Made by a program: the position numbers and the translations under genes
The notes under the pieces: generated by a model
What the model was told of the DNA's origin: nothing
The model's input: only the letters and a program-made list of their open reading frames with translations
Databases searched by the model: none
Source: an archaeon
Lineage (GTDB): Archaea > Thermoplasmatota > Thermoplasmata > Methanomassiliicoccales > Methanomethylophilaceae
DNA length: 64,000 bases
Direction of reading: 5' to 3'
Assembly: GCA_024399155.1 (NCBI GenBank)
Contig: JAKSHX010000001.1
Coordinates: 33,116 to 97,115, forward strand
Part shown: in pieces, positions 56,242-63,971 of the stretch
How the letters are laid out: every line of letters starts with the position of its first letter
How positions within the stretch are numbered: position 1 is the stretch's first letter

Positions 56242-56571
56242 TCAACTTACCTCCTCAACTAACATCTGTAACAATTCTTCTTCTGAACTAACCTCTATAT
56301 TATATGGTTCAAAAAACTCTTCACTCCATACTAGTGCCCTGTCGTCTACAAAATAAGCAGGGCAGTATTTCCCTTTTCTAAACCTTATTTCTCTTTTGGT
56401 TATTTTTACTGCTTCTCCTTCCTTTCTACACATCCAATCACTGACTCCCGGATCCCATTCACCGGATAATGCAAGGTCTCTATCGATGTTATCCAAATTT
56501 TCTTTAACATAAACGGTATCGCCTACGTTATACATAAACACAACATCTTCTTCTGCTACTGCTGCTGGCAT
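56242..56571 (-). CDS. SH3-like small protein, paralog family member (C-terminal SSEEELLQMLVEEVS)
   Basis: Start moved to M21 (RBS GAAAGGAAG), because the ORF-track N-terminus overlaps the a1' arm of ncRNA unit 2. Core YNVGDTVYV...LVWSEEFFE. Confidence 0.6.
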   Translation of the reverse strand: MPAAVAEEDVVFMYNVGDTVYVKENLDNIDRDLALSGEWDPGVSDWMCRKEGEAVKITKREIRFRKGKYCPAYFVDDRALVWSEEFFEPYNIEVSSEEELLQMLVEEVS

Positions 56572-56599
56572 ATTAACAACTTCCTTTCTATATTTTTTT

Positions 56600-56888
56600 A
56601 ATCGTAATCTAAATGAGATTTTCTCATCCATGTGGACATCAGAATTACCTGTTAGCTACCTCTCTTCAGTGGTTTATTCATGCGTTTTGACCTTCGTTCC
56701 TTAAACTTCCCACGGTTTTTCCACGTTCGTGATAGCTGATGTTCTTAACATCGCCTCGCCCCGTTAAGTTCCTGGATTCGAGCTATAGAACGCCGGGCTT
56801 GGGCAGCCTGATCGGCCCGTTCGTCCACTTATCAAATTGTTACTTCCATCTACGACAGAAGCGGTTAAAAACCAATTGCATTACGATT
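56600..56888 (-). ncRNA. Retron-type ncRNA unit 2 (msr/msd-like), downstream of the RT
   Basis: a2' AAUCGUAAU (56888-56880) pairs with a1' AUUACGAUU (56608-56600). A G follows a2'. The 5' 85-90 nt is homologous to unit 1, including the 33-nt block 56829-56861. The GC-rich unique 3' part carries helices GUGGAC/GUCCAC, AUAGCU/AGCUAU, GAUGUU/AACAUC and AUGAGA/UCUCAU. Confidence 0.6.
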
Positions 56889-56894
56889 GTTTTA

Positions 56895-58049
56895 TTATCC
56901 TCTCAGGTCTTCCTTCATCATATCTACGACGTTGACACCGAGTTTATTGTTTATTTTATGTATGATATTATCTATATGATCTTTCTCAACCATACGATAA
57001 TAGTTCCTGTATCCTTCAAGAACCTGAACTTCATTTAATTCCCACGACTTCCCGTTAAGCCTATCCATAGCATAGTTAAACAGCATAACAGCGAATCTCC
57101 GTTTCGCTTTGTACCCAATAGTGATTTCATTATCCTTATTGAGCATAACTCCGAGGTTCCAGTTAGAACCAGACGAAGAACCATACCTTGTCTTCTGACT
57201 CTTGATGTTGAACGGAGCTCCAAAACCATTAAGGCTTTCCTTAATGATTGACTCAATCTCATCCACATCAAAATCGTACTCAGAAGAAACTATAAAGTCA
57301 TCCGCATATCTTGTGTAAATATACTTCTGCTTATTATAATCCTTTAGCTTATTGGACAGTTCGTAGTCCACAGGAATCATAATTAAGTTAGTAATGAGCG
57401 GTGATATCGGTGTGCCCTGAGGAAGACCGCCATCCAGAAAAGCAAGGTTAATTGCGTCAGCTAACGCCTGTTTGCCTTCTTCATCCTTAACAACCTGAGA
57501 AAACGGGAATATCATTGAAAGCATTTTCATTGTATATTCTTCTGTTGTACTTCCGAAGAAGTTGCTCAGGTCATACTTAGCAAACCACTTGCTTTTATTC
57601 TGCTGATGTTTCTTTACCGCATCAAGAGTGCTTCTATTCTTTACATAAGCGAATGCTGCAGTGTGATATAAAGCCCCGAACTGTTCTTCAAATATCCTCT
57701 TAAGTTCCCTTAATGCTTCCATTAATTCTGGATTAGGGGCATCTATACGGCGAAGTCCACCACTTTTCTTTGGAATATGAAACGTATAATAAAGACTGGA
57801 ACGTTCAGCGTTCTTTAAAGCCTCATACTTTTCATTAAATGTCTTGAGCGTCTGGATTAAATGACGCACAGAAATCGCCCTTTTAAAATGCTTTGTAGCT
57901 TCTTCAACACAATACGTTCTTGTTGCTGTTGTGTTAGGAGCAGCTAAACCACCATACTTAGGTTCTTCGAATAATGTATCCAGATTAAGTAAATCATCAA
58001 GACTCATTTGATGATATGACGGACTCAATTTTACAACAATATACTCCAT
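56895..58049 (-). CDS. Reverse transcriptase, retron/DRT-like (stand-alone RT domain)
   Basis: FHIPKKSGGLRRIDAPNPELMEALRELK, YVKNRSTLDAVKKH, YDLSNFFGS, GLPQGTPISPLITNL, YTRYADDFIVSS, IKSQKT...NLGVMLN. ATG at 58049 with AAGGAGG; the track start (TTG 58079) lies inside the a1 arm. Confidence 0.85.
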   Translation of the reverse strand: MEYIVVKLSPSYHQMSLDDLLNLDTLFEEPKYGGLAAPNTTATRTYCVEEATKHFKRAISVRHLIQTLKTFNEKYEALKNAERSSLYYTFHIPKKSGGLRRIDAPNPELMEALRELKRIFEEQFGALYHTAAFAYVKNRSTLDAVKKHQQNKSKWFAKYDLSNFFGSTTEEYTMKMLSMIFPFSQVVKDEEGKQALADAINLAFLDGGLPQGTPISPLITNLIMIPVDYELSNKLKDYNKQKYIYTRYADDFIVSSEYDFDVDEIESIIKESLNGFGAPFNIKSQKTRYGSSSGSNWNLGVMLNKDNEITIGYKAKRRFAVMLFNYAMDRLNGKSWELNEVQVLEGYRNYYRMVEKDHIDNIIHKINNKLGVNVVDMMKEDLRG

Positions 58050-58069
58050 ATGTATCCTCCTTGTTATTG

Positions 58070-58283
58070 TTAATTGCAATCTTTGTATTCTTATACCTGC
58101 CTGACGGCGTTGCCCGCAGCCCTTGAGAACGCGTAAAACCTTACTTTGAAAATATTAAAAGCCTTTGATCGAAGCTCCTGAAATTCAGATCCACTTCCGC
58201 CTCACCCGATCGTGCCTTTATCAAATAGTTACTTCCATCTACGACAGAAGTTTTCTGTTACCAGAAAAATGCATTGCAATTAA
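58070..58283 (-). ncRNA. Retron-type ncRNA unit 1 (msr/msd-like), upstream of the RT
   Basis: a2 UUAAUUGCAAU (58283-58273) pairs perfectly with a1 AUUGCAAUUAA (58080-58070). A G immediately follows a2. Hairpins UUUUCUG-GUAA-CAGAAAA, CUUC-N11-GAAG, GAUCGGG...CUUCGAUC and GUAU-AAGA-AUAC. a1 ends 20 nt before the RT ATG. Confidence 0.65.
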
Positions 58284-58525
58284 ATATTACTTAAAAAATC
58301 TGTAAGTGATTCTTCACTCTCTATTTCAGTATTCGTATCAACAGGCTCAAGTTCTTCAACCATAAAATCAAGTATCATTTCTGGTGCGAACTGAACTGTA
58401 ATAGGATATGTACCTGTGTCGATATTTGTAACTATCCCCTCTTCTCCTATATAACTTTGTGCTGTTGTCTGTTGATCTTCCCCAATTACACGAGTAACAA
58501 TCACAGTTTGTCCTACGTAAAACAT
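58280..58525 (-). CDS. SH3-like small protein, paralog family (C-terminal SEESLTDFLSNI)
   Basis: Start at M6 (RBS GAGAGGTG). FYVGQTVIV core. Confidence 0.6.
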   Translation of the reverse strand: MFYVGQTVIVTRVIGEDQQTTAQSYIGEEGIVTNIDTGTYPITVQFAPEMILDFMVEELEPVDTNTEIESEESLTDFLSNI

Positions 58526-58529
58526 ATCA

Positions 58530-62574: not shown

Positions 62575-62837
62575 ACTATCACCTCGTTTATAAAGAACTT
62601 ATCAAACTCTTCTTCAGAAGATATGTTTAATTCCGGACTACAAACAAGATCAAACTCATATTCATTCCAGAGATAACAGTTTGATCTACCATCGAACTCA
62701 ATCTTGTATGGAAACGCCCTGTAATCTTCATGAACCTTTGCAATTATTCCTCTTAACCCAGCGTATGCTTCTTTCCCTACGTTGGAATTTTCTCCAACGT
62801 CACTACGTATAATAACTTCATCGCCAACTTCAAACAT
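62571..62837 (-). CDS. SH3-like small protein, paralog family (SSEEEFDKFF tail)
   Basis: FEVGDEVIIR...YLWNEYEFDL. Confidence 0.6.
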   Translation of the reverse strand: MFEVGDEVIIRSDVGENSNVGKEAYAGLRGIIAKVHEDYRAFPYKIEFDGRSNCYLWNEYEFDLVCSPELNISSEEEFDKFFINEVIV

Positions 62838-62841
62838 ATAC

Positions 62842-63123
62842 TCACCTCAAATCAAATAGTTCTTTTAATTCATCTTCCGTAGCTGGATTGACTTCTTCAT
62901 ATGGTTCGAACATATCTATTGTCCATATCCAGTATTCATCATCAATATCAAGACGGTATCTTGATTCTTCTCCTTCCCTCTCACGTTCAACAATTCTAGC
63001 TGTTAAACCACGGTATTTTTCCATACCTTCAACAAAGAAACAACCGCCTCTATATATTCTGTCTTCGTCAGCCTCTATGTCAGTCTTTATTACTACCGCA
63101 TCACCAACTTCATACTGTTCCAT
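62842..63123 (-). CDS. SH3-like small protein, paralog family (C-terminal ATEDELKELFDLR)
   Basis: YEVGDAVVIK...WIWTIDMFE. Confidence 0.6.
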   Translation of the reverse strand: MEQYEVGDAVVIKTDIEADEDRIYRGGCFFVEGMEKYRGLTARIVEREREGEESRYRLDIDDEYWIWTIDMFEPYEEVNPATEDELKELFDLR

Positions 63124-63134
63124 ATCATCAACTC

Positions 63135-63407
63135 CTAACTTAAAAATCCCATCAGTTCATTTTCGGTAGCCATTTCAAGATTGACCGATTCCTCTTCGAA
63201 CATTTCCTTAACCCAGTGAAAATTCCTGTCGTCAATGTCAAGTAAATAGTACACACGGTTTTCGACTTCATCAATATCGATAATACATGCTTGACGCCCA
63301 AGATATTCCTCCATTTCTTCAACAAAGTAACAGCGTTCTGTGCCATATCCGGTGTTTGTAATCAAATCATCTTTGATTCTTATCATGTCTCCGATTTCAT
63401 ATCTCAT
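63135..63407 (-). CDS. SH3-like small protein, paralog family (C-terminal ATENELMGFLS)
   Basis: Start at M38 (RBS AAGAGGTG). YEIGDMIRIK...FHWVKEMFE. Confidence 0.6.
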   Translation of the reverse strand: MRYEIGDMIRIKDDLITNTGYGTERCYFVEEMEEYLGRQACIIDIDEVENRVYYLLDIDDRNFHWVKEMFEEESVNLEMATENELMGFLS

Positions 63408-63421
63408 TGTATCATCACCTC

Positions 63422-63697
63422 TTAACTTAAGAAATCCATCAGCTCGTTTTCGGTTGACGGTTCTTTGTTCTCTCCAATCTCTACTAAGTCGAACATTTCT
63501 GAAGTCCACCAAAAACATCTGTTATCAATATCGAGTTCGTATCTTATCTCATTTGAATATGGAATAACATGTTCGATTGTCGCTTCATAACCCAAGTATT
63601 TTTCCATGCTTTCTACAAATGTAGTACCTTTATACACAGTATCTGGAATTAAATCTTTTCTGACTCTAACTCTTGTGCCGACTTCTAACTGATCCAT
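63422..63697 (-). CDS. SH3-like small protein, paralog family (C-terminal STENELMDFLS)
   Basis: Start at M7 (RBS GAGGTG). LEVGTRVRVR...FWWTSEMFD. Confidence 0.6.
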   Translation of the reverse strand: MDQLEVGTRVRVRKDLIPDTVYKGTTFVESMEKYLGYEATIEHVIPYSNEIRYELDIDNRCFWWTSEMFDLVEIGENKEPSTENELMDFLS

Positions 63698-63707
63698 AGT
63701 TATCACC

Positions 63708-63971
63708 TCAACCAAATAACTCTTTTAATTCGTCTTCGGATGCAGGCTCTGATTCAGCTACAGGAATAAGCATCTCGTCCGTCCAACCATATGTTTCCAT
63801 TCCCGGTATATTTAATCTGTAATAAGCCCCAAAATTGTCGTGCTCTTTTTTGTAAATTTCAAAAACACGTTCTTTATGTTCAAGCATTTCAGAAGTCACA
63901 TGCCAACACTCATATTTTTCACCAAACTCAAGGGCTGGATTTATCATTACTAACTCTCCGACTTCAAACAT
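63708..63971 (-). CDS. SH3-like small protein, paralog family (C-terminal ASEDELKELFG)
   Basis: FEVGELVMIN...YGWTDEMLI. RBS GAGGTG. Confidence 0.6.
   Translation of the reverse strand: MFEVGELVMINPALEFGEKYECWHVTSEMLEHKERVFEIYKKEHDNFGAYYRLNIPGMETYGWTDEMLIPVAESEPASEDELKELFG

Follow-up and report, generated by a model that had tools for sequence, protein, structure and literature searches.

We analysed a 64-kb stretch of phage DNA (64,000 nucleotides of contig JAKSHX010000001.1, assembly GCA_024399155.1; hereafter the window), and in particular an array of small paralogous genes on its minus strand (56242-63971), whose products carry an SH3-like head and, after a short linker, an acidic C-terminal tail peptide. 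The tail is a portable module in this phage lineage: the same peptide ends proteins that are unrelated to the array family, it recurs in the N-terminal extension of the phage's replicative polymerase DnaE, and it is kept while the proteins that bear it diverge. Given this, we incline, with a confidence slightly above even, to the view that the array encodes variable-head, constant-tail adaptors, which are tethered through a portable docking peptide to one shared hub.

The tail is separate from the fold that carries it

The paralogs are labelled A to O, running from 63971 down to 56242 (Table 1). Their tails follow the consensus [AS]-[ST]-E-[DEN]-E-[LF]-x-x-[FL]-[LF] (representative peptide, EPSTENELMDFLS), an acidic-amphipathic element of 9-10 amino acids (aa) with the pattern hydrophobic-x-x-hydrophobic-hydrophobic. 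We derived a position-specific scoring matrix (PSSM) from 12 tails and scanned all 401 six-frame open reading frame (ORF) segments with it, which gave 17 matches above 12 bits, as compared with 0.3 expected in shuffles (maximum 2). The 12 training tails and the tail of paralog J scored 21-33 bits, each lying 0-5 residues from the stop codon.

The tail is a separate module and not the last helix of the fold. It is joined to the barrel by an acidic or proline-rich linker of 8-12 aa, which is probably disordered; in the AlphaFold2 model of paralog C the linker (residues 74-82) had a predicted local distance difference test (pLDDT) score below 50 and was followed by a low-confidence helix (residues 82-87), unpacked against the barrel. 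Moreover, the peptide is specific to this lineage: of the 148 best distant homologues, no more than seven scored for it, and most of the seven were close relatives of the phage's own proteins. The first-pass annotation of this DNA had proposed that the tail acts as a short linear docking motif, and the low-confidence linker, the absence of the tail from most distant homologues and its stronger constraint (see below) are in line with that proposal. It had also named, as a finding that would speak against it, homologous phages with single copies lacking the tail. Saphexavirus and Clostridium perfringens phages are indeed single-copy, while the tail is kept throughout the lineage studied here; in Saphexavirus SAP6 (gp22) and in C. 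perfringens phage CPQ4 the one head is fused to a further C-terminal domain.

The tail codons vary synonymously (Ser is TCT, TCC or AGT; Leu is CTG, TTA, CTT or TTG), and the nucleotide identity between copies is as low as first noted (pairwise median 0.53, maximum 0.64). Hence, the copies are old and their conservation is at the protein level. The possibility that the tail is a nucleotide-level element or a Shine-Dalgarno overlap was ruled out by the synonymous codons, by the position of the motif 24-30 nt before the stop codon and by the N-terminal copy.

The same peptide on unrelated proteins

The tail had been described as a feature of the array family. This is true of the array copies, but the peptide is not family-specific, being portable to unrelated proteins and to DnaE, so that the question moves from the family to a phage-wide tag. 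Two proteins unrelated to the SH3 head, X and Y, are encoded between the primase and DnaE genes, and in both the PSSM match falls exactly at the C-terminus. Neither matched the head hidden Markov model (HMM), Pfam, PHROGs or PADLOC, and tblastn against known phages was empty. In protein X, the tail residues A134-S135-E136, E138-L139 and F142-E145 are invariant in six orthologs. Furthermore, X is tandemly duplicated in the related contig L010 (10001-10883), where the body of the second copy is strongly diverged and the tail NVATEAELEIFLKE is kept; likewise, a diverged ortholog of Y in the contig L009 retains NVATEDELIQFLKG while its body diverges.

The motif in DnaE (gene 34671-37967) is a weaker match, which we nevertheless take to be real from sequence comparison. 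The DnaE allele of L010 and L009 is 48% identical and carries IASLSDLKRFLS and VASLSDLKRFLS, respectively, in the same place, close to where the extension begins; the stretch at this site reads SIASLSDLKRFLSDD in L010 and YVASLSDLKRFLSGD in L009, and is followed by a low-complexity linker and the PHP domain. The DnaE proteins of Thomasclavelia phage TR-TP1 and Bacillus phage Thrax3 have no N-terminal extension and start directly at the PHP domain. The gene is also mosaic: between 34671-37967 of the window and L010:10912-14175 identity is 48% overall, 89-99% in the flanking genes and complete over the last 40 residues, a pattern that points to a putative swap of DnaE alleles by recombination inside the gene.

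Further cases lie beyond the window. An acidic protein of 190-195 aa, encoded upstream of the array, ends ESEELLDFLSAS in the relative L008 and ESQKLLDFLSAS in L007, and an 836-bp contig of a more distant relative (L012) encodes three heavily diverged heads with intact tails. On a contig of another lineage, a two-repeat SH3_15 protein ends ATDEEMLALFG, and the adjoining unrelated ORF reads ...AADDNEFLAMI at the contig end.

Heads diverge while tails are held

The ratio of nonsynonymous to synonymous substitution rates (dN/dS) was computed against the relatives L007 and L008. It reached 0.44-0.49 in the heads and 0.18 in the pooled tails, with a proportion of nonsynonymous changes (pN) of 0.012 in the tails versus 0.041 in the heads, and in the same genome pairs it ranged from 0.03 to 0.08 for the genes of the reverse transcriptase (RT), primase, DnaB, ERF, PD-(D/E)XK nuclease and GP88. 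Relative to conserved phage genes, head evolution is thus 6-10 times faster, with the tails kept in check; the fast evolution of the heads fits an arms-race role.

The head is a divergent SH3 barrel of the Mind bomb REP type

The head (~70 aa) is a divergent Mind bomb REP-type SH3 barrel (Pfam SH3_15, PF18346), and so the initial SH3-like call was right and is now sharpened by profile comparison, AlphaFold2 and Foldseek. Single paralogs stayed under the gathering score of PF18346 (best E = 0.07; 2 of the 15). PHROG HMMs performed better: seven members matched phrog_7488 (best 1e-15) and five matched phrog_17705 (best 1.3e-9), two families annotated as of 'unknown function'. Searched exhaustively against 1.84 billion representative proteins, the profile of the paralogs hit 3551 clusters, headed by proteins with 2-17 tandem copies of the domain; SH3_15 was present in five of the seven longest top matches scanned (in four at 1e-70 to 3e-73), together with kinase or ADP-ribosyltransferase domains. 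The same profile matched the solved REP structures of MIB1 (4tse, E = 1.7e-5; 4xi6, E = 1.8e-4). In the model of paralog C, residues 1-70 form a barrel (pLDDT >90) whose best Foldseek match in the PDB was MIB1 MZM-REP (4xi6), with a probability of 0.99 and a template modelling (TM) score of 0.56, at an E-value of only 0.098. In MIB1, the REP domain binds Notch ligands through a short peptide epitope (PMC11887331).

Among known phages, tblastn gave 30-37% identity to the Saphexavirus and C. perfringens phages that carry the head family. Elsewhere, the two-repeat SH3_15 proteins P0085, P0112 and P0177, and P0061, P0081 and P0116, bear different recurring C-terminal elements; one distant SH3_15 group ends ...Y-x-L-N-F-N-[IL], and in another the element is a coiled-coil beginning NRLAKAVCEYEE. 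Judging from these sequences, SH3_15 heads seem to be combined with several alternative tails.

Members of the array

All 14 ORFs and all 14 tails quoted in the first-pass annotation were found on the minus strand of the array region, together with the N-terminal motif and the middle motifs YLWNEYEF, YVWFEEEI, FHWVKEMFE, FWWTSEMFD, WIWTIDMFE and RFRWNGKEIEL. Its picture of an expanded, diverging family with an SH3-like head was borne out by the head HMM and the fold matches, and its count of about 14 is roughly right: by head sequence, ten copies are solid, two marginal and two weak. Membership of the heads was scored without the tail, by leave-one-out HMMs and, for G, H and I, by hhalign profile-profile comparison in addition. 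The heads of B, C, D, E, K, L and M gave leave-one-out E-values of 1e-5 to 3e-12, and those of A, N and O were also significant (4e-4 to 2e-3); F and J were marginal (about 0.03), and G, H and ORF I were not significant by this test. The gene calls of the relatives place some starts later than the longest ORF does (C 90 aa, B 91, N 81, J 94).

In L007, an IS605-type TnpB gene (OrfB_IS605, Cas12f-like) is inserted in the ortholog of paralog K (L007:10996-12250), of which a 40-aa remnant is left; since this ortholog is destroyed, single copies are dispensable. A second TnpB gene adjoins the primase gene in L009.

Table 1. Array genes, other bearers of the tail peptide and further features discussed in the text (positions in the window)
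Feature	Position	Strand	C-terminus or motif	Scores and remarks
Paralog A, 87 aa	63708..63971	-	ASEDELKELFG	first array gene; leave-one-out E=8.6e-4
Paralog B, 91 aa	63422..63697	-	STENELMDFLS	leave-one-out E=6.7e-12
Paralog C, 90 aa	63135..63407	-	ATENELMGFLS	copy modelled with AlphaFold2
Paralog D, 93 aa	62842..63123	-	ATEDELKELFDLR	
Paralog E, 88 aa	62571..62837	-	SSEEEFDKFFINEVIV	
Paralog F, 92 aa	62296..62574	-	STENELLDLLS	tail 31.5 bits; marginal head, leave-one-out E=0.027
HTH_3 (XRE-type) protein, small	61494..61721	-		inside array; Pfam HTH_3 E=1.8e-4, under curated cut-off
Conserved protein, 203 aa	60872..61483	-		inside array; syntenic in L004, L007 and L008
Possible member G, 98 aa	60561..60857	-	AKQLNDFLLGD (degenerate)	leave-one-out E=0.65; hhalign 71% over 21 columns
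Probable member H, 95 aa	60076..60363	-	EEFNQLLMS + 10-aa extension	leave-one-out E=0.41; hhalign 94% over 30 columns
ORF I, 64 aa	59678..59872	-	tail-less	FDIGDKV start; membership unsupported; leave-one-out E=4.2; hhalign 8%
Paralog J, 94 aa	59376..59660	-	SESEFLDFIREC	tail 21.3 bits; marginal head, leave-one-out E=0.029
Paralog K, 92 aa	59094..59372	-	SSEEELLDLLS	
Paralog L, 87 aa	58818..59081	-	ASENELLNLLS	
Paralog M, 91 aa	58530..58805	-	ASEDELLGLFER	
Paralog N, 81 aa	58280..58525	-	SEESLTDFLSNI	leave-one-out E=3.9e-4
Retron-type RT	56895..58079	-		interrupts array, not a family member; Pfam RVT_1 1.5e-17; PADLOC RT_II-A 3.3e-46
Paralog O, 129 aa as called, ~109-aa core	56242..56631	-	SSEEELLQMLVEEVS	downstream of RT; leave-one-out E=2e-3
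Apparent phage single-stranded DNA-binding protein (SSB)	42530..42907	-	...SDGEVPF	called by eye from sequence and C-terminus
Protein Y, 120 aa	38425..38787	-	VATEDELSKFLEG	PSSM 23.8 bits; N-terminal CxxC pair
Protein X, 145 aa	37980..38417	-	IASEDELDNFLKE	PSSM 23.4 bits
Motif copy in DnaE N-terminal extension	37899..37934	-	IASEESLEAFVS	PSSM 12.5 bits

Proposed docking to a shared hub, and its alternatives

We propose that the 12-14 single-domain proteins of the array, each built of a REP-type SH3 head, a linker and an acidic-amphipathic peptide, would act as adaptors. The peptide is an independent short linear motif, which in this lineage was also added to the N-terminus of DnaE, to X, to Y and to the 190-aa acidic protein. 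It would dock all tail-bearing proteins to one common hub, and the heads would be fast-evolving recognition modules that bring different targets to the hub, or the hub to targets. A docking motif for one hub is suggested because the peptide is terminal, sits on a variable linker, is common to the polymerase and unrelated proteins, and is kept while the bodies diverge. As to the hub itself, our first but tentative choice is a replisome component such as the sliding clamp; the neighbouring E1-like/JAB-like machinery of the phage comes second and is unlikely, and a Clp unfoldase or protease, in third place, is less likely still, followed by other candidates.

Several observations weigh against this explanation. 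The sequence examined covers ~71 kb of the ~109-kb genome, i.e., the 64-kb window and, by way of the relatives, ~7 kb beyond it, and neither part yielded a clamp or clamp-loader gene. The bacterial clamp-binding consensus is Q-L-[SD]-L-F; the L-x-x-F-L spacing found here fits neither it nor the L-D-F-L-F of phage T4 exactly, being off by one residue. In addition, where E. coli has its internal clamp-binding QADMF, DnaE retains xDMF at the homologous site, so that its N-terminal motif may serve another partner, and a dozen proteins with the clamp motif of the polymerase would compete with it. The 'unrelated fold' of protein X is read from its sequence, the AlphaFold2 model (7 close orthologs) being uninterpretable (pLDDT 41). 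Finally, the tail dN/dS comes from ~100 codons per comparison with two non-independent relatives, and for L008 taken by itself the value is 0.72, based on very few changes.

The 290-aa protein encoded downstream of DnaE (33715-34587, minus strand) was considered as a hidden clamp and dropped, as its consensus has a Thr-rich N-terminus and a Cys-/Tyr-/Gly-rich C-terminal half, and looks cell-wall-like by eye. It has 483 homologues on large phage contigs, belongs to no Pfam family, and its C-terminal half is highly conserved. PDB sequence searches with this protein, with X and with the 75-aa, 280-aa and 489-aa proteins described below returned nothing usable.

Among the alternatives, the one that fares best, while being rather improbable, makes the tail a handle for a ubiquitin-like machinery of the phage, in which ThiF/E1-like and JAMM/JAB-like enzymes would recognise, trim or conjugate the tail proteins, or the tail would dock the REP-like heads as substrate receptors. 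The relevant cluster lies upstream of the array in relatives (L007:1434-5618 and L008:1399-5419, corresponding to ~1-6 kb past window position 64000), with the gene order before the array being two 75-aa proteins, a 489-aa protein, a 280-aa protein, the tail-bearing 195-aa acidic protein, a 57-aa protein, ThiF and Bro-N. The ThiF/E1-like gene is well matched (Pfam, 1.4e-23; PADLOC CBASS E1-E2, 2e-18), and the 280-aa protein matches PADLOC JAB (E = 0.0019) and has, by eye, an exact JAMM motif, HSH-x7-S-xx-D. By eye only, the two copies of the 75-aa protein are beta-grasp-like. A tail-bearing protein thus sits inside the E1/JAB cluster. Tails A, B, C, F, K and L end one small residue (S or G) past two hydrophobics, and most of the others have 2-8 extra residues (10 in H), as would suit trimming; moreover, the solved relative of the head is the substrate-recognition module of an E3 ligase (MIB1). 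In type II CBASS (cyclic-oligonucleotide-based antiphage signalling system), Cap2 and Cap3 reportedly act on the C-terminus of the CD-NTase. On the other side, an E2 or a ubiquitin-like protein is not established in the cluster, the 75-aa and 489-aa proteins being without matches; the JAB match is weak, and the cluster lies outside the window and is known from relatives only. The DnaE copy, being N-terminal, cannot be a C-terminal conjugation handle, and E1 enzymes normally require a C-terminal Gly. The array may be linked to a ubiquitin-like system of the phage.

The remaining alternatives are, in our estimate, all doubtful and to about the same degree. One is that the tail is a protease-adaptor or degron signal, delivering tail proteins or head-bound targets to a Clp-type machine. 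A barrel with a linker and a short C-terminal peptide matches the architecture of SspB, a ClpP-family protease is encoded at 31591-32298, outside the structural module, and the only SH3_15-type gene of Enterococcus phage SAP6, gp22, has a gene annotated 'ATP-dependent protease' two genes away; near the head-family gene of the C. perfringens phages, however, ClpP was not seen. The ClpX-binding peptide of SspB is basic, whereas the array tails are acidic. The first-pass suggestion of a protease tag is unlikely in the form of a C-terminal degron, which is read at the free end, whereas here the residues after the motif vary (LLS, LFG, LFER, FIREC, VEEVS and others) and one copy is N-terminal, on the replicative polymerase, which the phage would hardly mark for degradation.

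It is equally doubtful that the SH3 heads have the tail as their ligand and would so form a head-to-tail network or a replisome scaffold that includes the tails of X, Y and DnaE. MIB1 REP does bind a short linear epitope, head and peptide co-occur in one genome with tails also on non-SH3 proteins, and the domain is elsewhere often repeated 2-17 times per chain, favouring multivalent binding. Nevertheless, if the ligand is constant, the groove of its receptor should be conserved, whereas the heads diverge fast and the tails are constant; AlphaFold2 left the tail undocked on its own head, and most SH3_15-type phage proteins elsewhere are without such a tail.

Nor are we much inclined to think that there is no common partner; on this view the tail would have spread by duplication and local recombination as a generic amphipathic cap that serves solubility, folding or weak self-association. 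The shortness of the motif would fit, as would the fact that many proteins end in an acidic amphipathic helix, and the tail pLDDT was low in every model. However, the tail is kept across strongly diverged bodies and on an N-terminus, is under more constraint than the heads and scores far above chance on unrelated proteins, and the synonymous codon differences speak against recent gene conversion.

A bolder variant, of which we are sceptical, is a phage-wide address tag, in which one 10-residue peptide would wire the polymerase, replication accessory proteins and the E3-receptor-like SH3 heads to a single hub. In its boldest form this hub would be the E1/JAB machinery, and the array would consist of substrate receptors marking or unmarking diverse host proteins. 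If true, bacterial viruses would possess in this array an equivalent of the poxvirus ankyrin/F-box families, and equally of the E3 ligase Mind bomb. Should the tail be a docking tag at all, the identity of the hub would assign PHROGs 7488 and 17705, as well as prokaryotic SH3_15, their first function, and would show how a phage links rapidly diversifying recognition modules to one machine. A variable head with a constant tail would also be a natural compact adaptor design, reusable for engineering. Phage early regions are rich in small paralogs without assigned function, and this array offers a handle in the form of a 10-residue peptide that is also found on the polymerase.

Genomic setting and neighbouring genes

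The genome (~109 kb, 36% G+C) of this uncultured phage of gut type, of which the window is a part, is labelled 'archaeon' (GCA_024500515) or binned among 'Bacteroidales' metagenome-assembled genomes in its database copies. These labels look like a binning error, and the gene content points to a presumptive Firmicutes-type bacterial host, because the endolysin combines GH25 with PG_binding_1, the DnaE polymerase finds its best matches in phages of Thomasclavelia, Clostridioides and Bacillus (~45% identity), and the replication genes are of the bacterial type (DnaB, DnaG, ERF, PD-(D/E)XK nuclease). An archaeal host, in which the tail would be read as a PIP-box for PCNA, was ruled out by the same endolysin and replication genes. 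Megablast of the array region against 50,697 phage records gave no match, and a search of IMG/VR with a single-paralog query found no relative.

Nearly all genes from ~20.8 kb to 64 kb are on the minus strand, and the array is the first block in this long leftward series. In three relatives it is directly preceded by a Bro-N gene and a 53-56-aa gene, and since the array start adjoins these genes there, the whole array lies inside the window. For the RT that interrupts the array, no recognisable effector gene lies close by, and Rfam, which found only tRNAs in 53.5-64 kb, detected no retron msr/msd RNA in the flanking 200-260-bp gaps. The 203-aa protein had no match in Pfam, PHROG or PADLOC, and the HTH_3 protein overlaps an upstream 78-aa ORF (61711-61947). 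A very A+T-rich gap of 190 bp (59885-60075) separates paralog H from ORF I and may be an internal promoter region; scans for promoter and terminator consensus sequences gave chance-level matches only.

Several further genes of the window deserve mention. Between DnaB and primase, a 143-aa protein (39819-40250, minus strand) belongs to the Acb2/Tad1-hairpin family (PF24729 on the L009 and L010 orthologs; phrog_2428) and is probably a sponge for defence signalling nucleotides. The ClpP-family gene (31591-32298, minus strand) lies among PhoH, guanylate kinase, ThyX and NrdD genes, and in the replication/recombination block a protein with a PemK/MazF-type toxin domain (166 aa) is encoded beside an MrpR-like recombinase (44396-45880, minus strand). 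The segment 51539-54485 (minus strand) holds a 755-aa kinase/phosphatase/RNA-ligase fusion (Pfam on the identical L004 copy; Pnkp and T4 Rnl1-like) with four tRNA genes after it, for Asn, Met and Gln and a fourth, weaker one at 54180-54251, which suggests a tRNA repair and replacement module. Two tyrosine recombinase/integrase genes (16580-17581, plus strand; 24026-25195, minus strand) are present in this one phage genome.

Comparison with known systems

The tail had at first been likened to that of SSB, which (DDDIPF type) is likewise acidic with terminal hydrophobics and docks many partners. This analogy does not hold: the apparent SSB of the phage has its own canonical ...DGEVPF end, the logic is reversed (one SSB tail serves many partners), and the array motif, which is without a conserved terminal Phe carboxylate, ends LLS, LFG, LFER, FIREC and others in place of (I/L/V)-P-F at the free end. 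The GoF/MotB.1/Frd.2 proteins of T4 are another small SH3/LSm-like family of early phage proteins, found by structure prediction, for which an RNA-related role was proposed (PMC12152347); unlike the array, they are three dispersed genes without a common terminal motif. The closest phage relatives of the head family, PHROGs 7488 and 17705, Saphexavirus SAP6 gp22 and a 188-aa protein of CPQ4, are all annotated as hypothetical, and in SAP6 gp22 and CPQ4 a tail-like helix (PSELTLGMLLSKL and MKELTFREVIANIKEG) runs into the further C-terminal domain (60-100 aa) instead of ending the protein.

SspB provides the model of an adaptor that recognises with its head and docks with its tail: its substrate-binding beta-barrel domain is joined by a flexible linker to a short docking peptide at the C-terminus. 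It is a single-copy cellular gene and its ClpX-binding peptide is basic (LRVVK-like), which the acidic array tails are not. The heads are homologous at the profile level to the REP/SH3_15 domain of MIB1, itself a binder of peptide epitopes; in contrast to MIB1, the array domains are separate genes and not in-chain repeats, the individual proteins have no RING, ankyrin or other E3 context, and the C-terminal tail has no MIB1 counterpart. In the poxvirus ankyrin/PRANC (F-box-like) families, a variable recognition domain is combined with a constant C-terminal motif that docks host Skp1/SCF, and these genes are clustered and involved in host-range arms races; there, the virus is eukaryotic, the folds are different and the hub (Skp1/SCF) is known.

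T4 offers the closest documented parallel, since its gp43, gp55 and gp33 have a common, interchangeable hydrophobic-acidic C-terminal peptide for clamp binding on a variable unstructured linker (PMC2988020, PMC7892883). The two systems differ in that the polymerase here is of the DnaE type and bears the motif N-terminally, in that 12-14 SH3 paralogs stand against three T4 clients, and in that the motif reads E-[LF]-x-x-[FL]-[LF] as compared with S-L-D-F-L-[FY] in T4, i.e., with the spacing off by one residue. Nevertheless, the T4 ends ...ASLDFLFG and ...PSLDFLYEAND are close to SLTDFLS, ELMDFLS and ELKELFG here, and in both cases a terminal hydrophobic-acidic peptide on a flexible linker is found on the polymerase and on unrelated proteins of one phage.

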